The notes: generated by a model not told the origin, from the letters alone. A stretch of 64,000 bases of DNA from Synergistales bacterium (GCA_963666205.1 OY762654.1:1024001-1088000), one strand, 5' to 3'. Positions 22,048-61,910 are shown, counted from the first letter of the stretch. Program-made: numbers and translations.

Positions 22048-22929
22048 GTCGTTTCGGTGCGCTAAAGCAGCACCCTACGGTTCTTGTCTTCCTGCGTGTT
22101 ACTCTGCGAAACATTTGCGCTTACAGTCCGCCTTAACGTCTTTGTAAGATGGTTTGCGGCGGATCCTCTGCGGTAAACCGATTTTAGATTTTGGATTTTA
22201 GATTTTGGATTAGATCCATTGAGTTCCTCCGTGGTGAAAGGGTTTTAACGGTTCAGCTTTACGGTTCTTAGGTTTAACTCGTGCAAAATAGTATCACCGT
22301 TTTGCGCAGTAGAAAAAAGATTTGAGGGCTTCCTCTGCGCTCTCTGCGCCCTCTGCGGTAAAATAGCTTTTGATTTTGACCTGGGTTCCCTCCGTGGTGA
22401 AAGGGTTTAACGGTTCAGCTTTACGGGTTTTCATGGCACAAAGCTGCGCTTTCGTGCCTCCACAAAACCTTTATCTCAGTAGCATCTGGTCCGAATGTAC
22501 GAATCTTTCATCTTACTCCTGAAGAGTTACCCCAAGGGTTTATGTCTTCCTCTGCGCTCTCTGCGCCCTCTGCGGTAAAATAGCTTTTGACTTTGACCTG
22601 GGTTTCCCTCCGTGTACCTCCGTGCCCTCCGTGGTGAAAAAGTTTGGGGTGGATGTTATAGTTACTGGTTTTATTGTTTCCATGGCACAAATCTCCGATT
22701 TCGTGCCTCCCCAAAACCTTTATCTCAGTAGCATCTGGTCTGAATGGATGTTGACATGGAACTCAACTTTATCTTACCGGCCCGAAGGTCCGCCCGTCCA
22801 CGGTTTGTTTAGATGGGTTTTGGCGGATTTCCTCTGTGCTCTCTGCGCCCTCTGCGGTAAAACAGCTTTTGACTTTGACCTGGTTTCCCTCCGTGGTACT
22901 CCGTGTCCTCCGTGGTGAAAAGGTTTGGG
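22048..22929. repeat. Modular repeat array R3
   Basis: REP, GTCCGCC stems, heptamers, hairpin D 22279, hairpin E 22435 and 22684, several iteron blocks. Confidence 0.9.
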
Positions 22930-24294
22930 TCAGGATCTCCAATAATCACATACCAGGTCTTCCAGCCTTACCAGGTTAATATCCTCTGATGATTCCAACC
23001 CCTTGAAACCTGACCTGGAGAATATATAAAATACCGTTCTGCTGCAATCCCTTCCGACTACTTTCCGGATCTTGTCAGCCTTACCTGCCAGATCCATGAA
23101 AACCCTTGAATTTGCCGGCTCACGAGTCCATTTACATTCACCAAGCACCAGGGTCTCGCCCTTTACAGCCACTATATCAACCTCATCCTCACCATCCCAC
23201 CACCTGCCCATACCTTCAGGGTTTATCCAATCTTTCAGAACCTGCCTGCAGATCTTCTCCCAGGTAAAGGAAGTATGCATAGAAAGAGTGGATGAGATCT
23301 TTTCCTGGACATCAGACCCTCTCTCCCTATAGATAAGTTCCTGATCGTCCAGCAGATACCTGAAATAAAAACGCAGATACTCATCCTCGATGAAGTACAG
23401 GGGGATCTTTTTAGGTCTTTTCAGGGAGAAGGGAAGTTCCTTGCGGATCAGTCCAAGCTCAAGGAGATTCCTCAGGTAAGTTGAAATGTTCTGATGGGGA
23501 ATACCAGTGATCTGTGCTATTTCGGATGCCCTGGTCCTGCCCTTTGCAATTGTCCTCAGGATCGAAAAATATGAAGTTGGATCCTTTTTGAACTCCTCCA
23601 TAACCAGAAAACGGCCCTCTTCCACTAGAAATTCACCAGGGCTCAGCATCGATTCCTTCAGTGCATTATTAAAAGAACCGTGTCCAGACATCTTCTTGAG
23701 ATAAAGAGGAATTCCCCCAACTGCAGAATATGTTTTTACCTGGTCTTCCATGTTCAGGTCAGGTAAAAATTTTCTTGCCTGCAGAAATCCCATAGGATCG
23801 ATACGGTATTGCCCTGTTCTTCTGCCATATATGGGACTGCTCTCTGCCAGGGTGATTCTTTCCATCATGCCGATAAAGGAACCGCAAAGCACCATCATCA
23901 CCGGCAGTTTACTGAATACCTGATCCCACCATCTCTGAAAAAGGGAAAGAAAGGAATCATCCTTGATGGGAATATACTGAAATTCGTCCCATACGATAAC
24001 CAGTTTTTCTCTGGATAATTTGATCATCTTTTCCAGAAGGGAGAACATCTCATCCCATTTAGTGACTTCCAGAGACAAAGGCAGTTCTGCTTTTTCTTTA
24101 AGGGGAATAGAGAACCTGTTGATCAGCTGCTGCGGTTCAGACATATCAGCAGTCAGGAAAAGAGCTCCGGGAAATGTGTTCTCAAGGAGGAAAGTCTTCC
24201 CTACCCTTCTCCTGCCATATATAACGACCAGCTCTGCATTTTCAGACCTGAACTTTTTTTCAAGAAATTCTTTCTCCTGTATCCGATCTATCAT
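22930..24294 (-). CDS. Archaeal-type ATPase (ATPase_2) + wHTH + DUF234 PD-(D/E)XK-like domain
   Basis: YGRRRVGKT, WDEFQY, CGS, PIYGRRT, GGIPLYL, GRWW..EVDIVA..GECKW; ATG at 24294 with GGGGGTG RBS preferred over TTG 24381. Confidence 0.88.
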   Translation of the reverse strand: MIDRIQEKEFLEKKFRSENAELVVIYGRRRVGKTFLLENTFPGALFLTADMSEPQQLINRFSIPLKEKAELPLSLEVTKWDEMFSLLEKMIKLSREKLVIVWDEFQYIPIKDDSFLSLFQRWWDQVFSKLPVMMVLCGSFIGMMERITLAESSPIYGRRTGQYRIDPMGFLQARKFLPDLNMEDQVKTYSAVGGIPLYLKKMSGHGSFNNALKESMLSPGEFLVEEGRFLVMEEFKKDPTSYFSILRTIAKGRTRASEIAQITGIPHQNISTYLRNLLELGLIRKELPFSLKRPKKIPLYFIEDEYLRFYFRYLLDDQELIYRERGSDVQEKISSTLSMHTSFTWEKICRQVLKDWINPEGMGRWWDGEDEVDIVAVKGETLVLGECKWTREPANSRVFMDLAGKADKIRKVVGRDCSRTVFYIFSRSGFKGLESSEDINLVRLEDLVCDYWRS

Positions 24295-24314
24295 ATGCGC
24301 ACCCCCAAAATCAA

Positions 24315-24357
24315 AAAATACAGAAGATATATTCTGCAAATATATCTTCTGTATTTT
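24315..24357. promoter_or_regulatory. Perfect 19-bp inverted repeat (putative operator) upstream of ATPase
   Basis: AAAATACAGAAGATATATT-CTGCA-AATATATCTTCTGTATTTT. Confidence 0.6.
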
Positions 24358-24388
24358 AAGGGCTGCTCTTATAAATTGCAAATAGTCC

Positions 24389-24770
24389 TTTCGGTGCGCT
24401 CTCTGCGGTAAACCAGCTTTTGCCTTAGGTTTTATGTTTTCCTCAGATATTCCTCCGTACCCTCCGCAGTAAAAGTGTCTACTGTTTTCAGGTTTTATGT
24501 TTCCCTCTGTGCCCTCCAGGTCTAATCTTTACCATGGCACAAAGCTGCGCTTTCGTGCCTCCACAAAACCTTAAAGTTAAGATGTAATCTATCTGAACTG
24601 TCAAAAAAGGAATAAATCCTGAATATTATGTCAAAGAAGTCTTGTTTTCCTCATGTTTTACCTCTGCGGTACTCTGCGTGACCCCTGCGCCCTCTGCGGT
24701 AAAACAGGTTTTGACTTTGACCTGGGTTTCCCTCCGTGGTGAAAGGGTTTTAACGGTTCAGCTTTACGGG
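24389..24770. repeat. Modular repeat array R4
   Basis: Iteron blocks, hairpin E 24536-24559, shared A-B linker. Confidence 0.85.
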
Positions 24771-26905
24771 GTATCTCCCCTTCGGTAATTCCCGCTCAGG
24801 TAATCATACAACCCATACACCCGCACCGGATCCTCCAATACCCTGCCCCCCATATCCGCACAGTACCTCTCCAGTTCCTGGTATAGATTCTTCCCCAGCA
24901 CATCCGGGTTAAGCTGCCTCAGAAGCTGTTCCGGGGTCTGCCAGGCACCGGGCTGACGGGCAGCATAGTAATTCCATGTAGACAGAAGGGTGAATTCCGA
25001 AGTCCATGTGTGGGCACTTTCCCTGCCGAACCAGTAATCCGCCGGTATCTCCAGATACATGCCAGCATTGCTGTAACTTTTGTCCATGGTCAGGTTATCC
25101 GTTCTGGCGATCCAGAATCCCACACCAAGGTTGTTCCACCACCTGGTCGCAGAAAACCTGGCACCCCAGTCACCGTCTATAAAGACACCGTACTCTCCAG
25201 TAAGGTCAAGGTCATAAACAGGATCATGATAACCGGCCTGGGCCCAGTACTCCCACCACCACTCATCATCCGGATAACCTCTTCCCACGGTTATCCTGCC
25301 CGTTCCTCCGAATGTCACCGGCTTATCAGCCAGGGAAGCGAAACCCTCGGGGTCCCTTTCATGGACCACGCTCATCCGGCCCCCTACCCACCATCGGCCG
25401 TCATCGCTGTAAAACCTGGCCCATGCATTTCCGCCGAACCACTGGGCATCCAGCCACCCGGCCTCACCCAGGGCAAAGAACCTGTCGTTTATCTTGTAAA
25501 GGTAACTGAGAACACCCTTCCATATGCGGGTTTCGTCATTGGTCTCGGGTTCCCAGTAAATATCTATATCGTTATCGATGGGCTGGCGGATATCCATAAT
25601 GGCCTCCCAGCCATGGCTCGACCTCATGCGGTAGATCCAGTCAACACTCCAGCGGTCCATATAATCTTCCTGGAGGGTCCTGTCGATGCGGGGTTCGTAG
25701 ACAAGCATGGCCTTGAATTCCGAATTGCCCTTATGTCCCGACCTGCCAGGACCATAGTGGACAGGCCACTTGTCACGGAAAAGATCATCCCGGACCCAGG
25801 TGATTTCAGCCCCGGCCGCATCGGTTGCACTTATGTCGCCAAGGCGCAGTAGACCGCACTGGTAACCGGGAACTTCAAGAACACTGATGGCCTCGCCTCG
25901 AAGCCTTGGCACCAGGAAAAGGCTTTCCGTATCCCATGGAAGAAGCAGGGAAGTAAGGGTCATAACCCGGGCCATGGCCTCAGCCTGGGACGTATAGCCG
26001 ATATTCTCGTAGGCCACAAGGACTCTCCTGTCACCGATGAACACCTCCACATCCCGAACACCGACCCTGTTTCCGACATACTCCACAATCTGCTCTGCAA
26101 GACCTTCCAGGTCAGTTTTCTCCCAGTCGGGAAGGGTTACATCTGAAGATTCGGGAAGTGCATATTTCTTTTTATTTTTCCCGAAAAAGGGCTTCGTGAG
26201 GTCAAAATTGTATGAAAGGCCGAAACACCACTCCTCACCCCTCTGATAACTCAGGGAAGCATCCACACCCCAGGGGGTCTTCGCCACAAATCCCGCATTT
26301 ACCTTTGAATCGACATCCTCCGCGATGATCCGTCTGGAACCTATAGTATCCTGGCTGTAATCCAGAGGGCTGTACTCAGCCTTGACCTCAAGCCAGTCAT
26401 AGGGCTGCCATGAAAGGCCGCCGAAAAAGCCGTTAAGTCTGTCGCTGCCATAACCCCATGTGAGGGCAAGCCTGTCCCATTCCCAGGTGGCCACGCTGTA
26501 ATAGGCCTGCATTATCTTCGTACCCAGAATGTCCGTAACGCCAAAGGCAACACTGGGGCGGCACTCATCCTGTTGAAACATGAGAAATTTAAGGTCAATG
26601 GCCTTGTCCTTGTATTTTCCGTAACCTTCCGATATCTGTGGCCCCGTAGCGAAACGGGTAAGGCGCAGGTTCAGTTCCATCCAGGGAAAATAACCGAGGG
26701 AAATGTAGTATGGCCTGTAGGGCTCGAACCATGAAATGCCCACCCTGCCCATACCGTCACCGGGCACCTGTGCCGTGGGGTACTCCCACAGGCCGAGGAA
26801 TCCAGCATTGGAAGGACTTGCTCCGTATGAACTGCCTGTAAAGGCTGTAATAAGTAACAGAGAAAAGACAAAGACCGTTAAAAATATCCTGCGAAAAATG
26901 ACCAA
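24764..26905 (-). CDS. YjbH/GfcD-like outer-membrane exopolysaccharide protein
   Basis: Signal peptide; GLWEYPTA, FPWMELNLR, YKDKAIDLK, FGVTDILGT, GVFIDGDWG. Confidence 0.75.
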   Translation of the reverse strand: MVIFRRIFLTVFVFSLLLITAFTGSSYGASPSNAGFLGLWEYPTAQVPGDGMGRVGISWFEPYRPYYISLGYFPWMELNLRLTRFATGPQISEGYGKYKDKAIDLKFLMFQQDECRPSVAFGVTDILGTKIMQAYYSVATWEWDRLALTWGYGSDRLNGFFGGLSWQPYDWLEVKAEYSPLDYSQDTIGSRRIIAEDVDSKVNAGFVAKTPWGVDASLSYQRGEEWCFGLSYNFDLTKPFFGKNKKKYALPESSDVTLPDWEKTDLEGLAEQIVEYVGNRVGVRDVEVFIGDRRVLVAYENIGYTSQAEAMARVMTLTSLLLPWDTESLFLVPRLRGEAISVLEVPGYQCGLLRLGDISATDAAGAEITWVRDDLFRDKWPVHYGPGRSGHKGNSEFKAMLVYEPRIDRTLQEDYMDRWSVDWIYRMRSSHGWEAIMDIRQPIDNDIDIYWEPETNDETRIWKGVLSYLYKINDRFFALGEAGWLDAQWFGGNAWARFYSDDGRWWVGGRMSVVHERDPEGFASLADKPVTFGGTGRITVGRGYPDDEWWWEYWAQAGYHDPVYDLDLTGEYGVFIDGDWGARFSATRWWNNLGVGFWIARTDNLTMDKSYSNAGMYLEIPADYWFGRESAHTWTSEFTLLSTWNYYAARQPGAWQTPEQLLRQLNPDVLGKNLYQELERYCADMGGRVLEDPVRVYGLYDYLSGNYRRGDTP

Positions 26906-26939
26906 CCACTCCCCGAAGAAAAGTCAAACAAAAAACGAA

Positions 26940-27110
26940 CCAGAACAATTTTACCGCAGAGGACGCAGAGAACGCAGAGGAAAGCGTAACCCTGAGTGAA
27001 CCATTTTTCTTTAACCTGCTGCGTATATATTTCCGAGTTCATCCGCTCAGACCTTATCCAACTTAGACTGAGGTTAATGGATGTCACATAATCATAGATT
27101 TGTGCCAGGA
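26940..27110. repeat. Modular repeat array R5
   Basis: TTTTACCGCAGAGGACGCAGAGAACGCAGAGG + ~90-100 bp element + hairpin E (reverse). Confidence 0.85.
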
Positions 27111-27149
27111 GAAACTCTAGCCATAAATTCTGGCTGGTTACTGGATTTA

Positions 27150-27527
27150 CTACAGCCCGTTGGCAAATCGGGTTATACCATCCTTAAGTTTGACTACATT
27201 GAAATTAATAAGCAATCCTAGTTTCTTGCCGCTCAGTTTCAAGTAAGAAAGGATCTGAGCCTTATGTATATCCGTTATTTTTTCAACGGATTTAAGTTCA
27301 ATAATAATCTCGTCCTCTACAACCAGATCCAGACGATAACCCAAGTCTATTTTGACTTCATCATAAATCACAGGAAGAACTTTCTGGGACTCAACTTTAA
27401 AGCCTCTTTTATTTAATTCATAACAAAGACAAGCTTCATATGAACTTTCGAGAAGACCCGGACCTAAAGCAGAATGTACTTTAACAGCGCTATCAATAAT
27501 TTCTTTGCTTATCTCATTTATCTCCAT
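27150..27527 (-). CDS. GxxExxY protein (PD-(D/E)XK nuclease superfamily, PDDEXK_3)
   Basis: LGPGLLESSYE, YRLDLVVEDEIIIELKSV, AQILSYLK, GLLINF; 125 aa. Confidence 0.92.
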   Translation of the reverse strand: MEINEISKEIIDSAVKVHSALGPGLLESSYEACLCYELNKRGFKVESQKVLPVIYDEVKIDLGYRLDLVVEDEIIIELKSVEKITDIHKAQILSYLKLSGKKLGLLINFNVVKLKDGITRFANGL

Positions 27528-27599
27528 AGGTCTGAATACCCCCCAATTCAGTCATGACAAAACCCTAACCATTCTACAACAAAATTGTTTTTGGTTTTG

Positions 27600-28105
27600 C
27601 CTCTAAGTCGTGCAAAACCGAGTCTGGTTTTGCGCAGTAGGAAAAAGATTTGCGGGTTTCCTCTGCGCTCTCTGCGCCCTCTGCGGTAAAACAGGTTTGA
27701 GGGTAGATTTTATAGTTTCCGTTTTTATTGTTTCCATGGCATAAATCTACGATTTCATGCCATACATCAACTTTGAGGTAAAGTAGTATCTAGTCCGAAC
27801 ATTCTGAACCCAGAATTGGGAAAATCCCATATTCCGCAATGTTTTAAGCTTTTCCTCCGCGGTACTCTGCGCTCCCTCTGTGTCCTCTGCGGTAAAACAG
27901 GTTTGAGGGTAGATTTTATAGTTTCCGTTTTTATTGTTTTCATGGCACAAATCTACGATTTCGAGCCTCCCCAAAACCTTTATCTTCGTAGGATATGGTC
28001 TGTCCGGACAAATATCACATGTTATTCATGAACAGTTATACCAAGGTTTTACGCCTTCCTCCGTGGTAAAAGGGTTATAACGGTTCAGCTTCACGGGTTT
28101 TACTC
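27600..28105. repeat. Modular repeat array R6
   Basis: Hairpin D 27608, hairpin E 27738 and 27944, iterons; ~79-bp tandem duplication at ~27679 and ~27884. Confidence 0.9.
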
Positions 28106-28142: not shown

Positions 28143-28724
28143 TTATTTTACTCTCATTACAACTCCGCCATTGCCCCCAACATTTGCTGGATTTTCCGAT
28201 GCTATAAATAAACTCTTCGAAGGATCATCAAGATTCTCGCTCAGGGAACCATCATAGATCCCGCTTTCGGGAGACATCCTTTCCAGCTGTTTTCTGATCG
28301 AATAATCCGCATAGGTATTAGTAACATTGGCTGCAACATAAATATGAACATCTGGAGTGGCATAGGAAGGATCGCTTCCCGGCCCGGAAACATAGATAAA
28401 GTACGGGTTCTTTGAAGCATTATTCCAATCCTTTGGACCCGTTATACTGTGAGGTTCAGGTATACCCCTGTCCAGGTATTGGCTCAGGCTGTTTATGCTA
28501 ATTACACCCCAACCCTGCTCACTCTGGGAAAACCACTGCTGATTATCAGCATAGTACATAACTACTGCAGTCTTGAGAACTTCCAGGTTTGAGACTATCT
28601 TTGTCGCCTCGCTCTTACTGGTCGCGCTTCCGATTGTGATCATAAGAGAACCTGAGAGAATGCCTATAATGATGATTACAATGAGGATCTCTATAAGGGA
28701 AAAACCTCTGCTGCGCTTTTTCAA
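28143..28724 (-). CDS. Prepilin-type N-terminal cleavage/methylation domain protein (pilin/pseudopilin)
   Basis: RSRG|FSLIEILIVIIIIGIL class III signal peptide. Confidence 0.88.
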   Translation of the reverse strand: MKKRSRGFSLIEILIVIIIIGILSGSLMITIGSATSKSEATKIVSNLEVLKTAVVMYYADNQQWFSQSEQGWGVISINSLSQYLDRGIPEPHSITGPKDWNNASKNPYFIYVSGPGSDPSYATPDVHIYVAANVTNTYADYSIRKQLERMSPESGIYDGSLSENLDDPSKSLFIASENPANVGGNGGVVMRVK

Positions 28725-28917: not shown

Positions 28918-29525
28918 TATCGGTGCGCTGGAGCGCACCCTGCAAAACTTTATCTTACCGGGCCGAAGGTCCGCCCGTCCTCGATTTGTTTAGTGGGTTT
29001 TGGCGGCTTTCCTCCGTGGTAGAAAGGTTTACGGTTCTAAGGTTCCAATCGTGCAAAATAGTATCACCGTTTTGCGCAGCATGTATTATAACAAGTGGTT
29101 ATGACTTTCCTCCGTGCTACTCCGTGACCTCCGTGGTAGATAGGTTTTAGCGTTTGGGCTTTACGGGTTTTCATGGCACAAATCTACGATTTCGTGCCTC
29201 CCCAAAACCTTTATCTTCGTAGGATATGGTCTGTCCGGACAAATATCGGATGTTATTCCTGTTCAGGTATACCAAGGTTTTACGCCTTCCTCCGTGTCCT
29301 CCGTGGTGAAAGGGTTATAACGGTTCAGCTTTATGGGTTTCCATGGCACAAATCTTCGATTTCGTGCCTCTCAAAAACCTCAATCTTAGTAGTATTGGAT
29401 CTTGCAAAACATAACCAAAGATTAGTCGCAGCATATTTATACAAAAGGGGTTAAGCTTTCCTCTGCGCTCTCTGCGCCCTCTGCGGTAAAACAGGTTTTG
29501 ACTCTGATTTTGACTTTGGTTTTGA
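28918..29525. repeat. Modular repeat array R7
   Basis: REP 28922-28943, GTCCGCC stem, hairpin D 29049, hairpin E 29175 and 29345, iterons. Confidence 0.9.
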
Positions 29526-29532
29526 TAAAAAA

Positions 29533-30304: not shown

Positions 30305-30460
30305 ACATGTTTAACCGCAGAGGACGCAGAGAAAACCGGGAGGAAAGCATAAAAACATCGCTATGTAGATTTTATTAATCTCCTGTTTTATATATACATG
30401 ACCTGATCCTACTAAGATAAAGGTTGATGTATGGCATCAAATCATCGATTTGTGCCAGGA
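30305..30460. repeat. Modular repeat array R8
   Basis: Iteron + 89-bp element + hairpin E; similar to 34059-34200. Confidence 0.8.
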
Positions 30461-30659: not shown

Positions 30660-31490
30660 CAGTACTTGGGTTCCCTCTGCGCTCTCTGCGCCCTCTGCGG
30701 TTAGCTTAGGGTTAATAGGGGTAAAAGGTTTACGGTTCAGGTTTACGGGACCAATCGTGCAAAATAGTTCCATCATTTTGCGCAGCATAACAAGGAGTGT
30801 TAAGGGCCGAATGTCCGGCCAACCCGGCTTTAAGTTTTTTAGGAAGATCTTTGACGGAGGTTTTTGGCGGGTTTCCTCTGCGGTAAAAGAAAGATACTGA
30901 ATTTGTTTTTGACTTTGGTTTTATTGGTTAAGAGGTTTTCCTCTGTGACCTCTAGTTCGAAAGCACTACCTGGCACAAATCTACGATTTGGTGCCATACA
31001 TCAACCTCAGTCTAAGTAGCATAAGATCTGAGTGGACGTAACATCGGAATAAACACGCAGTATATGGATAAAATGGTTTGACGGGTTTCCTCAGGGTCTA
31101 CCTCTGCGAAACTCTGCGTAACCTCAGCGTCCTCTGCGGTAAAACAGCTTTTGATTTTGACCTGGTTTCCCTCCGTGTCCTCCGTGGTAGATAGGTTTTA
31201 GCGTTTTGGCTTTACGGGTTCCCATGGCACAAATCTCCGATTTTGTGCCTCCGGAAAAACTTGTTCACCAGGTTTTGTAAGTTTCAGGTTCTCGTTCTTA
31301 ATCGTGAAAAATCTAGTCTGATTTTTCGCAGCATGTTTCTTAAATCATTTGGTCTCGTTTTCCTCTGCGCTTCCTCTGCGCTCTCTGCGCCCTCTGCGGT
31401 AAAATAGCTTTTGACTTTGACCTGGTTTCCCCTCCTGCAAAGTTATCAGTCTTGCATACATACGGTTAAAATCAAGGTCTGACCCCATTC
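30660..31490. repeat. Modular repeat array R9
   Basis: Hairpin D 30755 and 31302, hairpin E 30972 and 31226, iterons; ends in a 34-bp element 31456-31489. Confidence 0.9.
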
Positions 31491-31827
31491 TTTTTTTATA
31501 CTGATAATTCTTTTCATAAATTTCACAGGACCTTTTTCCCACTTTTTTCGGGTCAGGATCTGTATTTAATCTTGACCCTATGGTAAAACTGAATAAAAGT
31601 TCAAATATTTAATATTCCATACTTTTAAGAATATACATTATAATGTTTTTCTCTTGACTTTCCTTATTTAACTGCACATAATGAAATCATTGAGAGTATC
31701 ACGAGTTAGAGAACAAACCCTTCCCCTGTAAAACTATTACAATTAAATCTGAAGAGTTAGACAGTTGAAGTCAAAATTCAATGACCTTTTCTTTCTTACT
31801 TAGAGTAATTACACTTAAACGTCGGGA

Positions 31828-34044
31828 GTGTCTAACGTGCATTTATGTTTTCGTCGTGGCATGGTATTTGCCATAGCCTTGTTCTTGTTACTGTTTTTAT
31901 CCATACCATCCTTTGCAGCAGGTGAAGGTGTATCAGGAGTTACCGGACCATCCTCTGCCCCATCGGGGTCAACCGGCAGTGATGCCGGACCTGGAGGCAT
32001 GGAAATAACCGGTCCAACCATAGACGGTTCCATATTCACCCCCGACAACCAGGGTCCCGGCCAGATCGAGTTCCTGGACATGACAGGTTCCCAGGTACAG
32101 GACGCAACAGGACAGGTCCAGGCACCGGGCCAGCAGATGGGCGTTGATGACAGTAACAAAGACTACGTCTCGGGCGCCCTTCCGTCCGTTATCACCGATA
32201 AGCTTCCCCGTTTCGGATATAACTTCTTCAGCAGACCCTCTACCGCCTTTGCACCCGTAAGGAATGTTCCGGTGGGACCCGATTACGTGGTCGGACCCGG
32301 TGACACCGTCCGCATCGACATCTGGGGGCTTGAAGAGGGCCATTACACCGTACCCGTTGACCGAAACGGTAACCTTTCCCTTCCCAGGGCAGGCGTTGTA
32401 GGTGTTACAGGCCTCACCTTCGACCAGGTGAAAATGGCCGTCACAAGTGCCTATTCCCGCTACTACAGCAATTTCCAGATAAATATAACCATGGGTCAGC
32501 TGAGGACCATAACCGTCTACGTTGTTGGCCAGACCAACCGGCCAGGCGCCTATACCCTTTCATCCATGTCCACAGTGATCAATGCCCTTATCGCATCTGG
32601 AGGTCCCAGCTTTTCCGGAAGCCTGAGGAACATCCAGGTCAAACGCAACGAACGGATAGTGTCCCGGTTCGACGCCTATGAACTTCTCCTCCAGGGCAGC
32701 AAGAAAAAAGACATCCGCCTCATGGACGGCGACGTGCTCTTCATCCCCACCGTGGGTCCCCTGGTGGGCATTACCGGCGACATAAAGAACCCTGCCTACT
32801 ACGAACTCAATGGGCAGGCAAGGATCTCCGATCTTGTGGAGATGGCGGGAGGGTTCACCAACCGCTACTTCAAGGGCCGGGTCCAGGTTGACCGCACCAT
32901 GGGCAACGAATACCGCACATCCTTCGAGAACGACCTCGCAGGGCTCAAGGAGAATCCTGCAAAGAACATACCCCTGGAGAACGGCGACCTCGTCAAGATC
33001 TACTCCGTTTCCGTCCAGGAATCCAAGATATACCTTTCCGGTGCCGTCGCCCGTCCGGGCCAGTACTCCATCCAGCTGGGCAGAACCAGGGTCGGCGATG
33101 TACTTCGCCGCGCAGGAGGCCTTCTCTACATGGCATCCAATGAGGGCGAGCTCACCCGGGTAAAGGTCACACAGGCCGGCCCCGAAACAAGCCGTTTCCG
33201 CTTCGACATATCAAAGGCCATGGCCGGGGATCCCCAGAGCAACATGATCCTCGATGTCAACGACTACATAACCATCCGCACCGTACCCGACTGGACCCTC
33301 TACCGTACCGTAAGGGTACAGGGAGAGGTGAAGTATCCCGGCGTATACACCATCCAGAAGGGCGAAAGGCTCACAGACCTCATCGAGCTTGCTGGAGGAT
33401 ACACGGATGAGTCTTTCCTTCCCGGTGCGACCTTCACTCGTGCCAGCGTACAGCGCAAGCAGCAGCAAAGGATCGACGAAATGATCGACCGCCTGGAGAA
33501 ACAGCTTTACGGCGCATCCGTTGAAGGTACAGCAACAGCCCTCACAGAAGGGGATGCCCGCATGACCCAGATGGAGACCCAGCAGCGCCAGCGATTCCTC
33601 GACAGGCTCAGGGAAACAAAGGGAACGGGCCGCATAGTGGTGAAACTGCCCGAGAACCCCAGGATGCTCAAGGGAACACCCTATGATATAGAACTCGACC
33701 AGGGAGATACCCTGGTTATTCCTAAAAGGCCCCAGACCGTACAGGTGGTGGGTTCCGTCTATAACCCCATGGCCTTCGTGTACCGTCCCGACCAGCCCTT
33801 CACATACTACGTGAAGCAGGCCGGCGGATATTCATACAATGCCGATACAAAGAGGATCTACATCATCAAGGCCGATGGAACGGCAACGAGGTCCTTTGTG
33901 AACAAGAAACCTGTGACCATCGAAGATGGAGACAGCGTGATCGTGCCGGAGAAGATCGATGTCAAGGGCAAGCTGAGGGATACCAGGGACATCGTGGACA
34001 TCGTGTACAAGGTCGCCGTCGGCGCCGCCGTGTTACTCGACTAA
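31828..34044 (+). CDS. Polysaccharide export protein with multiple SLBB domains (Wza/KpsD-like)
   Basis: RFGYNFF, DYVVGPGD Poly_export motif, repeated V.GEV..PG.Y SLBB units. Confidence 0.88.
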   Translation: MSNVHLCFRRGMVFAIALFLLLFLSIPSFAAGEGVSGVTGPSSAPSGSTGSDAGPGGMEITGPTIDGSIFTPDNQGPGQIEFLDMTGSQVQDATGQVQAPGQQMGVDDSNKDYVSGALPSVITDKLPRFGYNFFSRPSTAFAPVRNVPVGPDYVVGPGDTVRIDIWGLEEGHYTVPVDRNGNLSLPRAGVVGVTGLTFDQVKMAVTSAYSRYYSNFQINITMGQLRTITVYVVGQTNRPGAYTLSSMSTVINALIASGGPSFSGSLRNIQVKRNERIVSRFDAYELLLQGSKKKDIRLMDGDVLFIPTVGPLVGITGDIKNPAYYELNGQARISDLVEMAGGFTNRYFKGRVQVDRTMGNEYRTSFENDLAGLKENPAKNIPLENGDLVKIYSVSVQESKIYLSGAVARPGQYSIQLGRTRVGDVLRRAGGLLYMASNEGELTRVKVTQAGPETSRFRFDISKAMAGDPQSNMILDVNDYITIRTVPDWTLYRTVRVQGEVKYPGVYTIQKGERLTDLIELAGGYTDESFLPGATFTRASVQRKQQQRIDEMIDRLEKQLYGASVEGTATALTEGDARMTQMETQQRQRFLDRLRETKGTGRIVVKLPENPRMLKGTPYDIELDQGDTLVIPKRPQTVQVVGSVYNPMAFVYRPDQPFTYYVKQAGGYSYNADTKRIYIIKADGTATRSFVNKKPVTIEDGDSVIVPEKIDVKGKLRDTRDIVDIVYKVAVGAAVLLD

Positions 34045-34455
34045 AACCAAGAGCTGTTTTACCGCAGAGGTCGCAGAGAGCGCAGAGGAAACCGAAAGGC
34101 AGGCATAAAAATTTCGCTGTGTAGGTTTTTATTAATCTCCTGTTTTATACATGCATGACTTGATCCTACTAAGATAAAGGTTGATGTACTTTTGTGCCAT
34201 GGGCATAAAGAAAATCATCAATTCTAAGAGCAAAACATGTAGTTACCTCAGAGGACGCATCGGAAAATTATAAAGAATGCAATGTTGTTTACTCTTTTGA
34301 CCGTTTATTATTCTAGAAGGTTTTGGCGGATTTCATGTAGACAGGAAGTTCTAGGGGGCTAATCGTGAAAAATCTAGTCTGATTTTTCGCAGTAATACAG
34401 ATTTTACAGGTTTAACGGTTTCCTCTGCGCTCTCTGCGACCTCTGCGGTTAGCTA
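34045..34455. repeat. Modular repeat array R10 (internal polarity switch)
   Basis: ACCGCAGAGG iterons at ~34060, then hairpin D' 34363 and CCTCTGCG iterons 34422-34451. Confidence 0.85.
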
Positions 34456-34498: not shown

Positions 34499-34876
34499 AT
34501 GGAAATTAATGAAATTAGCAAAACAATTATCGACAGTGCTTTCCAAGTTCACAAAGCATTAGGACCAGGTCTCCTCGAAAGTGCATATGAAGCCTGCCTC
34601 TGCTACGAACTCAAGAAAAGAGGATTTACAGTAGAATCCCAGAAAGTTCTCCCGATAATTTACGATGGACAACAAATTGATGTTGGTTATCGCCTGGATC
34701 TTCTTGTACAAGATCAGGTCATAGTAGAACTCAAATCTGTTGAACATATAAATGAGGTACATAAAGCACAGATACTCTCGTATCTCAAACTTGGTAATAA
34801 GAAACTCGGACTACTTATCAATTTCAACGTAGCCAAAATCAAGGACGGGATAACCCGTATCGTCAACGGTTTGTAG
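34499..34876 (+). CDS. GxxExxY protein (PD-(D/E)XK nuclease superfamily), second copy
   Basis: LGPGLLESAYE, YRLDLLVQDQVIVELKSV; about 98/125 identical to 27150-27527 by manual count. Confidence 0.92.
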   Translation: MEINEISKTIIDSAFQVHKALGPGLLESAYEACLCYELKKRGFTVESQKVLPIIYDGQQIDVGYRLDLLVQDQVIVELKSVEHINEVHKAQILSYLKLGNKKLGLLINFNVAKIKDGITRIVNGL

Positions 34877-35024: not shown

Positions 35025-35185
35025 TAGGTTTTCTCTGCGCTCTCTGCGGTTAGACAGGATTTAGACTTTAGGGTTGCCGGTTTTATTCGTGAAAAATCTA
35101 GTCTGATTTTTCGCAGTAATACAGATTTTACAGGTTTAACGGTTCCCTCTGCGCTCTCTGCGACCTCTGCGGTTAAACAGTATTT
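35025..35185. repeat. Modular repeat array R11
   Basis: 35087-35175 is a direct repeat of 34363-34451. Confidence 0.9.
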
Positions 35186-45109: not shown

Positions 45110-46118
45110 TGACCTGCTCCCAGAAAAGTGGTCCAGTTGAAATGCGAGAAAGTTGCTAAAATTGGGCCCCTCGAGAAGGAATATTCATGAAGAAGAGATT
45201 TTGGAGAGGAATAGATCGTCTCCATATTGAAAGAACACAAAACAGGAATACCCGGTAAAGAGCTGGCAAGATACGGATTCAGTGAAAGACGGACGTGCGG
45301 GCTACTGAAAATACACTGAACGACATTGAGATACAACAGCAGGAAAGACAGGCAGGATGGACAGGAAAGGACAAGGTTTAAAGAACTCCCCTAGTATGGA
45401 AACGCGATCACTACATAAGGCTTCATACCCTGATTTACAGGTAAGGTTATGAGATAAACCATAAGAAGGGTGACCGGCTGTACTGTGAGGAAGATCTCAG
45501 GTTCAGGAAGAGAAGGAAGAAACGGTTGGCAAGACCACGATTATCAGAACCACTCGTTCTGGATAGAGCCAACCAGAGATGGTCGTTGGATTTTGTTTCC
45601 CATAACACAGCCATAGGGAGCAGGATCAGGATATTGACAGTAATAGATACATTTACGAGAAAATATCTTGCACTGGAAATGGAAACATACATAAGGAGAA
45701 GCCGTGTTTCCACGGTATTGGACCGGATAAGTATGAAGAGAGGTTATCCTGAAGAGATCCTTACCGACAAGGGACCAGAATTCACAAGTAAAGTAATGGA
45801 TGCCTGGGCTTATATCAGAGGAATAACCCACAGGTTTATAGAACCTGAGAAACCGTCACAGAACGGATATAGAGAGTTTCAACGGTAAGTTACGTTATGA
45901 ATGTCTAAACGAACAATGGTTTTTTAACCTTAAAGATACCATGAATATCATTGGCGAATGGAAGAAGACCTATAACGCGGAAAGACGTGACAACTTATTT
46001 GATAATATGACACCGTCGGAATTTGCTAAGAAAATAACGGTAAAAGAAGAAGCCCTCTGTGCTTAAAGATGTCAGGAAACTCGCATAGAAACTGGACCTA
46101 ATGCAGGAGGACAGGTCA
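45110..46118 (+). mobile_element. Degenerate IS3-family (IS407-like) element
   Basis: Imperfect terminal IRs TGACCTGCTCCC..GGTCCAGTT and AACTGGACC..GGACAGGTCA; frameshifted OrfA from 45188 (MKKRF..IVSILKEH) and OrfB relic (NQRWSLDFV, LTVIDTFTR, TDKGPEF, P.QNGY). Confidence 0.85.
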
Positions 46119-52268: not shown

Positions 52269-53270
52269 AATGGGGTCAGACCTTGATTTTAACCGTATGT
52301 ATTCAGTATTATGTAAATATTTTAGCCCTGCGAAAACCATGAAACCATAAAATCCAACCATCACCCTTTCTCACCACGGAGGTCACGGAGGAAGTTCGGA
52401 GGAAACACTGGAGCAAGACCAAAAGACATATTTTACCGCAGGGACTCTCCGAGTCCGCGCAGAGGCCGCAGAGAGGAGCACGCAGAGGGGATCGTTATCC
52501 TTTAACCCAGGACATCTGAGCAATCTGGAGCCATTGCTCATCTCGCAATAATAAATTTCCAGGCAAAATATAGATATTTCCCCTGTTCATTGTTTTATTG
52601 CCTTGAAAAATATACTTCATATTTTTCATTATTGTCCTAGGCTTTCAAATGCAAGGAGATGAAAAAAAATTTAGAAACAGGAGGCTTTGGCAATCTTTCC
52701 CGTGAATTTATCCATTACCTGGAAAATGATTTCATCATTTTCCTAATGTCCCGGGTTTTCAAGAAAACCTATTTACAAAGGAAAACTACAGGGACCATTA
52801 CACCCAAACCATAAATCCTGGGTGGTTAATGAACCCATGACATCTTCCAAGGGCATTTCGATGCGTTGAAGTCCGCCGCAAATCCGTCAAAGATCTTCCA
52901 AAAACTTAAAGCAGGATGGCCGGACATTCTGCCCTTTCATATAAAACCGTCAGGCCCGAGTAGTGGCGGACTTTCAGCGCGGGTCTAGAAGATCAAGAAA
53001 TAGGCCACTTTGTCGGCTGCGAAAAATAAGACTAGATTTTTCACGAATAAAACACCGGGAAAAGTTTAAGATGCGCTGAAGCACATCCTATGGATTGCTG
53101 TCGCGTAGGAAGGCACAAACCTTGAGGTAACTGTTCAGGAGTAACATCCTATTTTCGTCCGGACAGACTATCGGTGCGCTGAAGCACACCCTATGACCAA
53201 GGTTTTGGGGAATAAACATAAAAATATTATTGAGCGTTTTGGTGCGCTGAAGCGGCACCCTATGGAGGGA
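52269..53270. repeat. Modular repeat array R12 (partly degenerate)
   Basis: 34-bp element 52269-52302, iterons 52370-52490, GTCCGCC stem, hairpin D' 53017, three REP-like palindromes 53070-53263. Confidence 0.8.
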
Positions 53271-56664: not shown

Positions 56665-57000
56665 ACAGGTCAAAAACAAAATCAAAGTCAAGATATGTTT
56701 TACCGCAGAGGACGCAGAGTAACGCAGAGGAAATCAAACATGAGGGAACCCATGCTGCGAAAAATCAGACTCGATTTTTCACGAATAACCCCCGAATCAT
56801 AGCCCATAAAACTGTTTACCACGGAGGGACACGGAGGAAGGCATAAAGAATGGTGTGCTGCGCAAAATGATGGACCTATTTTGCACGATTAGAACCGTAA
56901 ACCTTGTAACCCTGTCTAACCGCAGAGGGCGCAGAGGAAAAGAAAATCGCACATTAACAATAGAATGATGCGCTGAAGCACATCCTATGGAAAACTAACA
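56665..57000. repeat. Modular repeat array R13
   Basis: Iterons, hairpin D' 56755, hairpin D 56858, REP-like 56967-56988. Confidence 0.88.
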
Positions 57001-58094: not shown

Positions 58095-58555
58095 AATCAG
58101 GATCAAGACATATTTTACCGCAGAGGAAACCGAAAGACTGAGAACCGTAAACCAAAAAACCTGTTTCACCACGGAGGACACGGAGGAGGATCTGAGGAAA
58201 ACCAGATCAAAATCAAAACACGTTTTACCGCAGAGGGCGCAGAGAGCGCAAAGGAAAGCATGAACCCTTGGTTAGAACAGACTGTTTCTGAATTCTGAAT
58301 GAGGTATGTTCGGATGATATGCTACTTTACCGATAGGTTGTTGGATGTCACGAAATCGGAGATTTGTGCCATGGAAACCCGTAAAGCCCAAACGCTAAAA
58401 CCCTTTCACCACGGAGGACACGGAGGTACACGGAGGAGACCGTTAAACCAATAAATCCTTGTGTTACTGCGCAAAATGATGGACCTATTTTGCACGATTA
58501 GAACCGTAAACCGTTTAACCCTGTCTAACTGCAGAAGGCGTAGGGGACAAAAACC
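58095..58555. repeat. Modular repeat array R14
   Basis: Iterons, 92-bp element + hairpin E 58347, hairpin D 58467. Confidence 0.9.
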
Positions 58556-58605
58556 TGGAGGTAAGGGAACCGGTTGAAATCTGCTGGCCTGCTTCGCCGA
58601 ACTCC

Positions 58606-59613: not shown

Positions 59614-59754
59614 GGGTTCCTCCTGGAAATTAAAGCATTATTGTTTATTGTAATGCATTTTGAAGAGGAAAATGAAGATTTTACCTTATTGAAACGGTTT
59701 TAATAATATAATATTACAGTTAAGGTAGTAATGGAAAACCGAAGAAAATTGAGT

Positions 59755-59776
59755 GGTGCGCTGAAGCGCACCCTGC
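59755..59776 (-). repeat. Isolated REP-like palindrome
   Basis: GCAG-GGTGCGCT-TC-AGCGCACC on - strand. Confidence 0.7.
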
Positions 59777-59829
59777 TCTAAAAGTTGTAGACCATATTAT
59801 GAAATCTTAATTTTTCTGGGGGGATAGAT

Positions 59830-61161
59830 TTGAACAGTATGAAAATAGGTGTAATAGGGACAGGTTATGTGGGGCTGGTTTCAGGACTTTGCCTGGCAGA
59901 CTTCGGCTTCACCGTTACCTGCGGTGATATAGATGTTTCAAAGATCGAGAGGCTCAACAGTGGAGAGATTCCCATATACGAGCCAGGGCTCAAGTCCGTT
60001 TACGATCGGGTAACCGAGCTCGGGAGAGTTACCTTTACCACTAATATCGATACCCTGGTAAACGACAGCGATGTGATCTTCATCTGCGTCGGAACTCCTC
60101 CTGAAGAAGACGGTTCCGCTGACCTCAAGTACGTCTGGCAGGTAGCAGAGACCATAGGAAAGAACCTGGAAACTTACAAGGTCATAGTAGATAAATCTAC
60201 CGTTCCAGTTGGTACGGCCCGAAAGGTTTATGACATCATCAAAGGTCAACTGGCTGAAAGAAATATGGATTCTGCCTTCGATGTGGTTTCAAATCCGGAA
60301 TTTCTCAGGGAAGGGAAAGCCGTCCATGATTTCACCCATCCGGACAGGATAGTTATAGGTTCCGATTCAGAGAGGGCCTGTGAGATCATGAAAAAGGTTT
60401 ACAGTCCCTTGAAGCTCAATGAGGTTCCCTTCGTGCTGACAAATCCCGAGACGGCGGAATTGATAAAATATGCCTCCAACGCTTTTCTGGCCACAAAGAT
60501 CGGTTTTATAAACGAAATAGCAAACCTGTGCGAGGCTGTTGGTGCAGATGTCCATAAGGTGGCAAAATCCATGGGTATGGACGGACGGATAAGCAGCAAG
60601 TTCCTCCACCCTGGCCCCGGTTACGGCGGCAGCTGTTTTCCCAAGGACACCATGGCCCTGGTGAATATGGCCAGAGAAAATGGTGTGGACTCCCTGGTGG
60701 TTTCTGCCGTGGTGGACTCCAATATCAGGCAAAAGGTCAGAATGGCAGAGAAGATAAAAAAGGCCTTTGGCGGAGATGTAGCAGGAAAGCAGATAGCGAT
60801 CCTGGGTTTGAGTTTCAAGCCGGAGACGGATGACGTTAGGGAATCCCCTGCCCTGGTAATAATCCCCGAGCTTCTGCAGAGGGGTGCTTTGGTACACGCC
60901 TACGATCCCCAGGGGATCGGTGAAACAAAGAAGGCTCTTACTGAGAGTGATGCAGATATTCTGTACACTGCTGATGAATATGACGCGTGCAAGGGTGCGG
61001 ATGCTGTTGTTATACTCACCGACTGGAACCAGTTCCGCAGGCTCGATCTTCAGAGGCTTAAAGACCTTATGAAAGGGAACAGGTTCTTCGACTTCAGGAA
61101 CATCTACGACCGGGAAGAGGTTGAAGGTATGGGGTTCTATTATGAAGGGGTGGGAAGGTAG
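59830..61161 (+). CDS. ugd: UDP-glucose 6-dehydrogenase
   Basis: GTGYVG, KSTVPVG, NPEFLREG, GYGGSCFPKD, FKPETDD. Confidence 0.92.
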   Translation: MNSMKIGVIGTGYVGLVSGLCLADFGFTVTCGDIDVSKIERLNSGEIPIYEPGLKSVYDRVTELGRVTFTTNIDTLVNDSDVIFICVGTPPEEDGSADLKYVWQVAETIGKNLETYKVIVDKSTVPVGTARKVYDIIKGQLAERNMDSAFDVVSNPEFLREGKAVHDFTHPDRIVIGSDSERACEIMKKVYSPLKLNEVPFVLTNPETAELIKYASNAFLATKIGFINEIANLCEAVGADVHKVAKSMGMDGRISSKFLHPGPGYGGSCFPKDTMALVNMARENGVDSLVVSAVVDSNIRQKVRMAEKIKKAFGGDVAGKQIAILGLSFKPETDDVRESPALVIIPELLQRGALVHAYDPQGIGETKKALTESDADILYTADEYDACKGADAVVILTDWNQFRRLDLQRLKDLMKGNRFFDFRNIYDREEVEGMGFYYEGVGR

Positions 61162-61910
61162 TTCGATTTTAGATTGGGGATTTTGGATTAAAAGATAGAA
61201 AACAACACCCAGAGCTTAAAAACTGTTTTACCGCAGAGAACGCAGAGGAAATCCTCAAATCTTTTTTTACTGCACAAAATGATGCACCAGTTTTGCACGA
61301 TTAGAACCGTAAACCTTTTAACCCTGTCTAACCGCAGAGGGCGCAGAGAGCGCAGAGGGAAGCATGAACCCTTGGTTAGAACAGACTGTTTCTGAATTCT
61401 GAATGAGGTATGTTCGGATGATATGCTACTTTACCGATAGGTTGTTGGATGTCACGAAATCGGAGATTTGTGCCAGGAGTCTAACTTCTAACCTGGAGGA
61501 CACAGAGGAAAACATAAAACCTAAGTCAAAATCTATTTTACTGCAGAGGATCCGCCGTAAACCATCGTATAAAACCATTAGACCCAAGTAGTGGCGGACT
61601 TTCAGCGCAGAGGAAAGCATGAACCCTTGGATTTGAAAATCTACTGCGCAAAACGGTGATACTATTTTGCTCGAGTTAAACCTAAGAACCGTAAAGCTGA
61701 ACTGTTTAAACCTTTCACCACGGAGGGCACGGAGTGCCACGGAGGTAAACCAGGTCAAAATCAAAAGCTGTTTTACCGCAGAGGGCGCAGAGGAAGGCGT
61801 AAGCCCTTGGGGTAACTGTTCAGGGATAACATCCCATATACATCCGGACAGATCATATCCTACTATGATAAAGGTTTTGGGGAGGCACAAAATCGGAGAT
61901 TTGTGACATG
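61162..61910. repeat. Modular repeat array R15
   Basis: Hairpin D 61270 and 61644, hairpin E 61451 and 61884, GTCCGCC stem, iterons; segments shared with R1, R2, R3, R7 and R14. Confidence 0.9.

Follow-up and report, generated by a model that had tools for sequence, protein, structure and literature searches.

A bulged hairpin that looks like a building block of a REP-like mosaic intergenic repeat in a Synergistales bacterium

Introduction

Neisseria intergenic mosaic elements (NIMEs) consist of repeat units separated by dRS3 inverted repeats, and dRS3 is also a target for phage integration; we know of no covariation or bulge described for it. The attC sites of integrons have R''/L'' and L'/R' boxes with a conserved core as their consensus. 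In the IS608 geometry, an imperfect hairpin carries an unpaired base, and a tetranucleotide stands at a set distance from it. In group-2 REPs, what counts for TnpA-REP is that the region is unpaired, not which bases it contains, and the E. coli TnpA-REP requires the bulge (PMC8266576). Many REPs are regarded as working at the RNA level (PMC3733652).

The window analyzed here is a stretch of 64,000 nucleotides from a Synergistales bacterium (GCA_963666205.1 OY762654.1:1024001-1088000). Its repeated stem-loop, hairpin E, had been predicted to be a folded single-stranded DNA recognition site for an enzyme, by analogy with attC sites and IS200/IS605 ends. The source genome (G000) is complete and 2.95 Mb long, and one congeneric genome (G001) was available for comparison.

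Hairpin E in the polysaccharide locus

Hairpin E is a 24-base stem-loop with a 10-bp stem, a 1-nt bulge, and a 3-nt loop. The pattern GGCACAAATC-N3-GATTTCGTGCC, searched with at most three mismatches, gave 15 matches in the window and none in each of 100 dinucleotide-preserving shuffles of it (Table 1). The strands are 10 plus and 5 minus, and no replication-strand bias is clear, with the pattern strand plus in 10 of the 15 window copies and the locus lying mid-replichore by GC skew. All coordinates and variants of the original prediction were correct: the exact copies at 22684, 29175, and 29345, AAAGC..GCTTT at 22435 and 24536, GGCAT..ATGCC at 27738, and the last end at 61907. The bulged G at 30972 and T at 31226 were found as described, and so was the copy near 34190 said to have lost its core: at 34180-34201 the usual flanks enclose just TTTTGTGCC, which leaves the copy about 16 nt short, without the loop and one of its arms.

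Up to three copies occur per intergenic gap. The copy at 27083..27106 lies 44 nt downstream of the stop codon of a GxxExxY gene, and nearly the same flanks surround it in G001. GxxExxY genes number just two per genome, too few for any test of their association with hairpin E. A small-ORF reading, with ATG at the hairpin foot on either strand, was ruled out because frames and stops vary among copies.

Table 1. Hairpin E copies and related hairpins in the window
Feature	Position	Strand	Basis
Hairpin E, GGTAC..GTGAC, two G-T wobbles; REP-type hairpin after right flank	20649..20672	-	pattern search
Hairpin E, compensated variant AAAGC/GCTTT, bulge C	22435..22458	+	pattern search, alignment, folding
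Hairpin E, exact consensus, bulge C, GTAG 20 nt downstream	22684..22707	+	pattern search, folding
Hairpin E, compensated variant AAAGC/GCTTT	24536..24559	+	pattern search, alignment
Hairpin E, GATTATG type, unpaired base moved to A18	27083..27106	-	pattern search, folding
Hairpin E, compensated variant GGCAT/ATGCC	27738..27761	+	pattern search, alignment, folding
Hairpin E, A-A mismatch at pair 4 (GAGCC)	27944..27967	+	pattern search, folding
REP-type hairpin of the same mosaic, GGTGCGCTGGAGCGCACC type, family flanking the genome's RAYT gene	28922..28942	+	hairpin search
Hairpin E, exact consensus	29175..29198	+	pattern search, covariance model
Hairpin E, exact consensus; 170 nt from the 29175 copy (tandem units)	29345..29368	+	pattern search
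Hairpin E, C5/A20 type; unpaired base at position 20 by folding	30433..30456	-	pattern search, folding
Hairpin E, bulge G; divergent gap upstream of wza	30972..30995	+	pattern search, gene context
Hairpin E, bulge T; can slip to unbulged 8-bp stem	31226..31249	+	pattern search, folding
Degenerate hairpin E unit, flanks retained, one arm and loop deleted, TTTTGTGCC left at 34190-34198	34166..34201	-	direct reading
Two REP-type hairpin sites, RAYT-associated family, inside the mosaic	53067..53193	.	hairpin search
Hairpin E, GTGAC type, G-A mismatch at pair 2	58347..58370	-	pattern search, folding
Hairpin E, GTGAC type	61451..61474	-	pattern search
Hairpin E, GTCAC..GTGCC, bulge T	61884..61907	-	pattern search

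Pairing, fold and bulge

Two alignments were used, A1 with 42 sequences and A2 with 47 loci. In A1, 94.8% of the cells pair and two pairs carry a compensatory change. In A2, 94.5% of the cells pair, and four of the ten stem pairs, together with 17 cells, have changed on both sides; the covariation score was reached by none of 500 shuffles, and slid controls pair at 28-47%. Because four of ten pairs have changed on both sides and no shuffle reaches the score, intrastrand pairing is either under constraint or templated in vivo. As few as about five events may lie behind the compensated variants, and templated (quasi-palindrome) mutation could yield compensation without selection.

The bulged stem-loop is the minimum-energy DNA structure on both strands (-6.3 kcal/mol; z-scores of -4.4 and -3.6). 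On average the two strands fold equally well (means of -7.25 and -7.10 kcal/mol). The bulged base had been said to vary while its position is kept. The base does vary (C in 25 copies, T in 9, and G in 7), and the one-base asymmetry is on the same arm in 45 of the 47 loci; on the other hand, folding displaces the unpaired base by one position in the C5/A20 (30433) and GATTATG (27083) copies, and the T copies can slip. In the latter the extra T adjoins a T run. With RNA parameters, an unbulged alternative of similar energy (8-bp stem, 8-nt loop) is open to these copies and, on the complementary strand, to most copies. The bulged register is supported because pair 9-15 covaries.

Individual loci showed the extra base on the opposite arm relative to the flanks (L116, in G001), a C-G pair gained beside the bulge (L113, in G001), and, in a divergent copy, full pairing with two compensated pairs and the bulge kept (L112). 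Hairpin E is more conserved than its own flanks and its loop, which has nine variants, and the invariant columns of A1 are concentrated in the hairpin, where AAA/TTT and G1/C24 do not vary. Since stem identity among the copies does not drop below about 75%, part of the bulge conservation simply reflects common descent.

A mosaic unit in turnover

Hairpin E belongs to a mosaic intergenic repeat and is its best-conserved module. In a typical unit, a short-repeat block of the CGCAGAGG/CACGGAGG type and then a variable spacer precede hairpin E; a conserved spacer of 20 nt, GTAG, and a REP-like segment follow it. The units stand about 170-430 bp apart, in tandem or inverted, in the intergenic gaps of one exopolysaccharide/accessory locus. 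CAT/CCT directly adjoins hairpin E at one end and TCC/ATA/ATC at the opposite end, and clustering of the flanks joins 14 left-flank clusters to one dominant right-flank cluster holding 40 of the 47 loci. GTAG is found at +20 or +21 from hairpin E in 27 of the 47 loci. In four loci an 18-nt REP-type hairpin follows exactly after RTAG at this spot, where such hairpins come and go. The two REP-type sites at 53067..53193 gave three matches, since the palindromic site 53067/53070 matches both strands.

The core genes of the orthologous loci of G000 and G001 are 85-94% identical; the cassettes differ and are bounded by repeats. Outside the locus, orthologous sites have the unit in one species and a replacement or half-deletion in the other. 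Two independent half-hairpin deletions were seen. Cassette boundaries, where readable, fall within the short-repeat blocks and not in hairpin E. One contig from a relative has a joint (22745 to 28006) that falls within the homologous right flank, with the hairpins about 38 nt away.

Distribution among genomes

At three mismatches or fewer, G000 contains 17 hairpin E copies, 15 of which are in the window, that is, in the polysaccharide/accessory locus. Covariance model R1 gave 18 matches in G000, of which 15 are within 41 kb, and 30 in G001, where one locus was counted twice, leaving about 29 loci. Most of the G001 copies are in the orthologous locus, with 21 loci (22 matches) at 24 to 82 kb of a single contig. 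The same model had no match in 39 other genomes of the order. A GTDB-wide pattern scan returned 63 loci: 19 (22 matches) in one record, at positions coinciding with G001, and 44 beyond it as single matches in unrelated taxa, close to chance as estimated here. A metagenome scan returned 22 stretches, none with hairpin E flanks, and nine of these belong to an unrelated perfect-palindrome family in two assemblies, so no larger copy set was gained. Judged from these sequences, the hairpin E family is small, young, and genus-restricted. Literature searches on Synergistetes intergenic repeats and hairpins and on GxxExxY found no published account of the repeat.

A probable REP- or NIME-like module

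Hairpin E is best explained, with a probability of roughly 0.55, as a REP/BIME- or NIME-like structured module of a genus-restricted mosaic intergenic repeat, distinct from a canonical REP, which would fold on single-stranded nucleic acid and be recognized by a protein. It looks like a building block of a REP-like patchwork repeat and not like a new kind of recombination site. The units would multiply and be shuffled locally via recombination or gene conversion between copies, with no dedicated transposase. Hairpin E may be kept because a protein in the cell recognizes the hairpin once it has formed on a single strand, and the bulge would give it polarity, as in group-2 REPs. As to the level at which it acts, DNA (replication or repair intermediates, cruciform) is slightly ahead of RNA. 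Against this explanation, the family is small and sits in one locus, whereas REPs are normally dispersed and numerous, and the REP analogy leaves that unexplained. The breaks of pair 2 count against it too.

Transcripts and gene context

A distinctly less probable explanation is an RNA stem-loop in the transcripts of the locus, where it would act as a barrier to decay, as a site of processing, or as the operator through which an RNA-binding protein controls how strongly each cassette is expressed. Every one of the 35 copies examined is intergenic or at most within a short ORF that matches no family, and for 24 the neighboring genes are co-directional, as this explanation would have it; their orientation, however, is unbiased with respect to transcription (14 one way and 10 the other). 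The remaining copies are in convergent (7) and divergent (4) gaps, and copies are also present 430 nt or more upstream of where the wza promoter is predicted, which argues against a role in transcripts. The compensated pairs are consistent with an RNA helix, as are three one-sided stem changes in A2 that yield G-U when read on the pattern strand. The RNA role proposed for many REPs (PMC3733652) also speaks for this explanation. In contrast, hairpin E has no U-tract, and Rfam 15, including the eps-associated RNA, had no match in the window at gathering thresholds. The sequencing runs compared, three metatranscriptomes and one of a second organism, were all contigs, and uncovered parts or repeat joints were not counted as evidence of transcription. 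RNA-library contigs of relatives span several hairpin E copies, yet such contigs show neither ends, strand, nor expression level and thus cannot establish these RNAs or their ends. In the window, ARAGORN found no tRNA or tmRNA gene, and terminator-like sites are not enriched (13 vs 17.2 +/- 5.0 in shuffles).

Search for a partner enzyme

It is somewhat more doubtful that hairpin E is a folded single-stranded DNA site at or near which a hairpin-specific enzyme (RAYT or another HUH protein, or a tyrosine recombinase) cuts or joins, moving units or cassettes. The kept bulge with its varying base fits this, as a bulge is required for E. coli TnpA-REP (PMC8266576), and so do the fixed GTAG spacing with REP-type hairpins appearing and disappearing exactly there, the species-differing cassettes bounded by repeats, and the two half-hairpin deletions. 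G000 also encodes one bona fide RAYT (C1:2458242-2458547), which scores 179.5 bits on NF047646 (cut-off of 80). However, this RAYT is flanked by GATGCGCTGAAGCGCATC-type hairpins and not by hairpin E, no hairpin E copy is within 300 kb of it in G000, and it was not found in G001, which holds more copies. Two other Y1-like genes are also present in 11 further genomes, all without hairpin E.

No tyrosine recombinase or HUH gene is in the window, with no Phage_integrase match among its 49 ORFs, and Y1_Tnp has no match in or near the locus. Phage_integrase matches the genome six times, at 0.198 Mb and from 2.53 to 2.80 Mb, and none of these sites comes within 800 kb of the locus. Of the original prediction, the fold is supported by the intrastrand pairing and the persisting asymmetry; the enzyme part is not supported. 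Moreover, GTAG is not adjacent to hairpin E, and both the readable cassette boundaries and the relative's contig joint lie away from the hairpins. A more specific version is improbable: an integron-like cassette platform of Synergistota without IntI, in which hairpin E with GTAG at 20 nt would be read by a putative trans-acting single-stranded DNA enzyme (RAYT-like HUH or an unrecognized recombinase) that shuffles, inserts, and deletes cassettes of the surface-polysaccharide/defense locus.

Neutral module or duplex operator

It is also unlikely that hairpin E has no function of its own, being a selfish or neutral palindrome carried along by a repeat that amplifies locally, with template switching within the palindrome producing the compensation. 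The small, young family of one genus agrees with this, as do the frequent breaks of pair 2 (G-A in 14 of 46 distinct rows of A2) and the units gained, replaced, or half-deleted between species. Template switching should, however, erase the bulge, and yet the bulge keeps to the same arm in 45 of 47 loci, the most divergent copies among them; nor does neutrality agree with a hairpin more conserved than its flanks and loop.

In the least credible explanation, a dimeric regulator of the locus would bind hairpin E as a duplex-DNA operator, which might stand next to a promoter: the inverted repeat, the stem conserved beyond pairing needs, and a sigma-70-like TGGAAA-N18-TAAAAT starting directly beside the hairpin (site 27736-27707) speak for it, but symmetric compensated changes within one genome are unexpected for single-protein sites, the covarying pairs follow the bulged register with two different symmetry centers, and promoter-like sites are not enriched in the window (25 vs 20.6 +/- 4.8 in shuffles). 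As the TGGAAA-N18-TAAAAT motif is confined to one flank subtype, a promoter was dropped as a general explanation. None of the sigma-54, IHF, dif/Xer, parS, and matS sites fits, by eye against their consensus sequences.

Comparison with known systems

Integron attC: Like attC, hairpin E is a folded single-strand site with extrahelical bases between the gene cassettes of one locus. However, attC needs adjacent intI and attI, and the hairpin E locus has neither; direct reading of A1 against the general attC consensus shows no R/L boxes. In attC arrays there is one site per cassette, in one orientation, at the 3' end of ORFs. In contrast, hairpin E occurs in both orientations, often two or three times per gap and in convergent and divergent gaps too, and the cassette boundaries are in other modules.

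IS200/IS605: Elements of the IS608 type and PATE-like elements share with hairpin E an imperfect hairpin with an unpaired base, and the GTAG at +20 or +21 in 27 of the 47 loci may be comparable to the IS608 tetranucleotide about 20 nt off. IS200/IS605 elements carry TnpA (Y1) between distinct left and right ends, whereas no Y1_Tnp match lies in or near the hairpin E locus and all copies are of one hairpin type. The analogies originally drawn with attC and IS200/IS605 are not borne out by these comparisons. The GTAG at fixed offset doubles as the tag of the neighboring REP-type module, which is probably the better explanation of it.

NIMEs: The hairpin E repeats resemble NIMEs in forming modular arrays punctuated by a short inverted repeat, a likeness by description only, and in being clustered in particular intergenic regions near surface-structure genes and tied to recombination. 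The sequences are unrelated and the phylum is different, sequence relatedness not being expected across phyla, and no phage-integration link like that of dRS3 was seen for hairpin E.

REP/BIME and REPIN: Like enterobacterial REPs and BIMEs, hairpin E is a short, imperfect intergenic palindrome that occurs in either orientation in mosaics with other motifs, and it is within the 20-40 nt of an imperfect palindrome with an unpaired stem zone (group 2). The presence of this zone, and not its sequence, is what matters in group-2 REPs (PMC8266576). A RAYT and GTAG-tagged hairpins are in the same genome and the same mosaic, as in REP/RAYT systems. In contrast, REPs have GTAG/CGTC directly at the palindrome end, and hairpin E has no tag at its foot and GTAG 20-21 nt away; REP/REPIN palindromes flank their RAYT, and hairpin E does not. 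REPs also number hundreds of copies dispersed over the chromosome in tight doublets, whereas hairpin E has 18-29 copies, most of them packed in one locus, in widely spaced units.

The published REP rule that the bulge and not the sequence counts recurs in a hairpin with no REP tag. If the fold is read by a protein, hairpin E would be a compact, genus-specific REP-like repeat tied to one variable surface-polysaccharide/defense locus and not chromosome-wide, and would offer a setting in which to study how repeats of this kind drive cassette turnover. As things stand, it adds a Synergistota example to the known mosaic intergenic repeats.

Copies of hairpin E and their pairing

Hairpin E, a 24-nt stem-loop with a 10-bp stem, a single bulged nucleotide and a 3-nt loop, is best read as one structured building block of a mosaic repeat, REP/BIME-like or NIME-like, that has been locally amplified and shuffled. 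Its pattern, GGCACAAATC-N3-GATTTCGTGCC with up to three mismatches, has 15 matches in the window and none in 100 shuffles. A pattern search recovered the exact copies of the original prediction at 22684, 29175, and 29345, and its AAAGC/GCTTT (22435 and 24536) and GGCAT/ATGCC (27738) variants are likewise present, as are the differing unpaired bases, G at 30972 and T at 31226. The copy near 34190, described as having lost its core, still has its flanks but lacks the loop and one arm, about 16 nt in all. By DNA folding, the bulged stem-loop is the minimum-energy structure on both strands (-6.3 kcal/mol; z -4.4 and -3.6).

The covariance analysis proposed with the prediction was carried out on two alignments. 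In the alignment of 42 copies, 94.8% of cells pair, with compensated changes at two pairs. The enlarged alignment covers 47 loci in 48 rows; it was fitted to the model and takes in divergent copies added by model search. In it, 94.5% of cells pair, against 28-47% in slid controls. Changes on both sides affect four of its 10 pairs and 17 cells: pair 2 (G-C to C-G or U-A), pair 5 (C-G to U-A), pair 7 (A-U to G-C), and pair 9 (U-A to G-C), the last with nine G-C rows and no one-sided intermediate. None of 500 shuffles reached the covariation score. One copy outside the locus in the source genome (L112) carries six stem differences with full pairing and the bulge kept, and a copy in the congeneric genome (L113) has gained an extra C-G pair next to the bulge. 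Counting against a pairing constraint, 14 of 46 distinct rows have a G-A mismatch at pair 2, and about five events may account for the compensated states. Judged from these alignments, the single-strand pairing of hairpin E is real in evolutionary terms.

The unpaired base

The prediction that the bulge keeps its position while its base varies stands for the one-base asymmetry in mid-stem and for the base variation, and fails for the exact position, which shifts. Among 44 standard-length copies, position 19 is C in 25, T in nine, and G in seven; the other three are of the GATTATG type, in which folding moves the unpaired base one position inward, and in four C5/A20 copies it lies one position outward. 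In 45 of 47 loci the extra base falls on one and the same arm relative to the flanks; L116 carries it on the opposite arm, and L115 is degenerate. Under RNA parameters, an unbulged 8-bp stem of similar energy is also open to the T copies and, for most copies, to the complementary strand; the bulged register is backed by covariation at pairs 7 and 9. Common descent explains part of this conservation, given how closely related the copies are. Template-directed correction inside the palindrome, however, would remove the bulge, which has persisted.

Distribution

The source genome (a single contig of 2.95 Mb, 44.5% G+C) holds 17 copies at up to three mismatches, of which the window has 15. Built on the 42 aligned copies, a covariance model matched 18 times in this genome, 30 times in the congener (one locus on both strands), and not at all in 39 other genomes of the order. 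In the congener, 22 matches (21 loci) map to the orthologous locus, at 24-82 kb of one contig. When one genome per GTDB species was scanned with a degenerate pattern, 63 loci came up. Nineteen of these (22 matches) belong to a single record, listed as an Acetomicrobium hydrogeniformans MAG, with positions that coincide with those of the congener, and the remaining 44 are single matches in unrelated taxa, a number close to the 35 or so expected by chance on our own estimate. The scan of JGI metagenomes gave unrelated sequences only. Given these searches, the family is, as far as searched, restricted to one Synergistota genus, with its copies concentrated in one locus.

An unrelated repeat in two metagenome assemblies (contigs L083, L086, L088, L089, L095, L096, L098, L100, and L101) contains a perfect palindrome, GGCACAAATC-N3-GATTTGTGCC, with the same stem sequence as hairpin E, no bulge and other flanks; the palindrome sits between two other hairpins.

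The locus and its transcription context

Pfam annotation of the 49 window ORFs identifies an exopolysaccharide cluster preceded by accessory genes. Copies of hairpin E in the window occur only in gaps at 20.6-31.3 kb and 58.3-61.9 kb, and none lies inside the glycosyltransferase block.

Features of the locus and associated repeats (window positions unless a locus handle is given)
Feature	Position	Basis or remark
AAA_14/DUF4143 ATPase, accessory	20866-22044	Pfam
ATPase_2/DUF234, accessory	22930-24381	Pfam
YjbH, accessory	24764-26905	Pfam
GxxExxY PD-(D/E)XK proteins, two	27150-27527 and 34499-34876	Pfam
Pilin-like protein	28143-28724	Pfam
Wza-type exporter	31828-34044	Pfam
Wzz-type protein	35213-36442	Pfam
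Priming transferase	36548-38011	Pfam
Glycosyltransferase block, low G+C	38-52 kb	Pfam
UDP-glucose dehydrogenase, ManC, epimerase, GT8	57-63 kb	Pfam
RAYT-associated REP hairpins	28922-28942, 53067-53193, 56967-56987, 59755-59775	
REP-hairpin site, filled	L014:14660-14700, L015:14850-14890, L117:357-400, L104:547-590	compared with window 29199-29240
Short-repeat blocks	27650-27700, 34050-34095, 34420-34450, 35140-35180	many others

Considering 35 copies of the two loci, 24 lie between co-directional genes, seven in convergent gaps, and four in divergent gaps. For the co-directional copies, the mRNA would carry the complement of the pattern strand in 14 cases and the pattern strand in 10, and no clear replication-strand bias was found. 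The strongest sigma-70-like match in the region, TTGACT-17-CATAAT (10 of 12 positions), is just upstream of 31700 and is possibly the wza promoter (31654-31682); the hairpins at 30972 and 31226 both lie upstream of this predicted promoter, by at least 430 nt. An RNA-library contig covering wza starts at 31700, in data that consist of contigs from related strains and carry no end or strand information.

Mosaic structure and turnover

BLAST of five 324-nt units against the source genome gave a patchwork of shared segments, mainly within the window, in which hairpin E is the best-conserved block; the right flank is also conserved over its first 22 nt. Fourteen left-flank clusters are joined to one dominant right-flank cluster (40 of 47 loci), and exchange therefore took place at or near hairpin E. 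A plain GTAG occurs exactly 20 or 21 nt past the hairpin in 27 of the 47 loci. In four loci, by direct reading, an 18-nt GGTGTGCTTTAGCGCACC-type hairpin fills the exact interval from RTAG to GATAG, at 20 nt from hairpin E, and its presence or absence looks like insertion or excision of a REP hairpin at the tag. The same hairpin family, as GATGCGCTGAAGCGCATC-type hairpins with RTAG tags, flanks, in locus L107 (G000:C1:2457970-2458766), the gene of the only bona fide RAYT of the source genome (182 aa, 2458242-2458547; 179.5 bits on NF047646, cut-off 80). This REP family has 25 matches at up to four mismatches, palindromes being counted on both strands. Since it recurs in the window, the mosaic contains canonical GTAG-tagged REPs, with hairpin E as a separate module beside a REP landing site.

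Between the two genomes, core genes of the locus share 85-94% identity, whereas the segments with the DUF4143 ATPase (20691-22084) and GxxExxY (26942-27756) reach 97.9% and 98.0%, which suggests recent exchange of these cassettes between species. The source genome has two pieces that are missing from the congener at those places: the cassette with the DUF234 ATPase and a segment of 2.3 kb (27.7-30.0 kb). Conversely, a 677-aa gene of the congener (L014, G001:C3:32104-34637), bracketed by same-orientation copies of hairpin E at 32104 and 34614, is missing from the orthologous place in the source genome (window ~63471-63520). Readable cassette boundaries fall in CGCAGAGG-type short-repeat blocks, and the cassette differences seem to break inside them. 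Tandem 8-9-mers, two to three per block (CGCAGAGG / CACGGAGG, GGAGG-rich), bound most repeat units. A CsrA gene is located at G000:C1:1647074-1647235.

At an orthologous site outside the locus, the congener has a full unit (L113), and G000:C1:2464564-2464721 has the flanks only, with one arm and the loop deleted. This remnant is the mirror image of that at 34190 and constitutes a second half-hairpin deletion.

Candidate readers and comparison with known systems

A genome search for a tyrosine recombinase or HUH protein associated with hairpin E had been suggested; it found no co-occurring enzyme among the Y1_Tnp, RAYT, and Phage_integrase matches. Y1_Tnp matches in the source genome are the RAYT and two longer ORFs (311 and 297 aa), both below the RAYT cut-off, with orthologues in the congener and also in 11 other genomes of the order, none of which has hairpin E. 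The Y1_Tnp search found no RAYT in the congener, which holds more copies of hairpin E. Six Phage_integrase matches lie at 0.198 Mb and 2.53-2.80 Mb, and among the window ORFs Pfam detected no recombinase gene except an rve fragment (IS3-type integrase core, 120 aa, 45526-45888) within the low-G+C glycosyltransferase block. The original proposal of a folded site for an ssDNA enzyme is unlikely, and it has no candidate enzyme. The analogies with attC and with IS200/IS605 fail on the defining features of those elements.

The favoured reading is that the fold of hairpin E would be read by a protein, with the bulge supplying polarity. Recognition at the DNA level is slightly ahead of recognition at the RNA level. 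Four observations underlie this preference: orientation is unbiased, copies lie outside likely transcripts, half-hairpin deletions occur, and hairpin E is physically coupled to a REP landing site. According to published work, the TnpA-REP of E. coli requires a stem bulge, whose unpaired state matters and whose sequence does not (PMC8266576), and a GTAG or CGTC tag at one end is the defining mark of REPs (PMC3733652). By these accounts, hairpin E shares the bulge property with REPs but lacks their terminal GTAG/CGTC tag.
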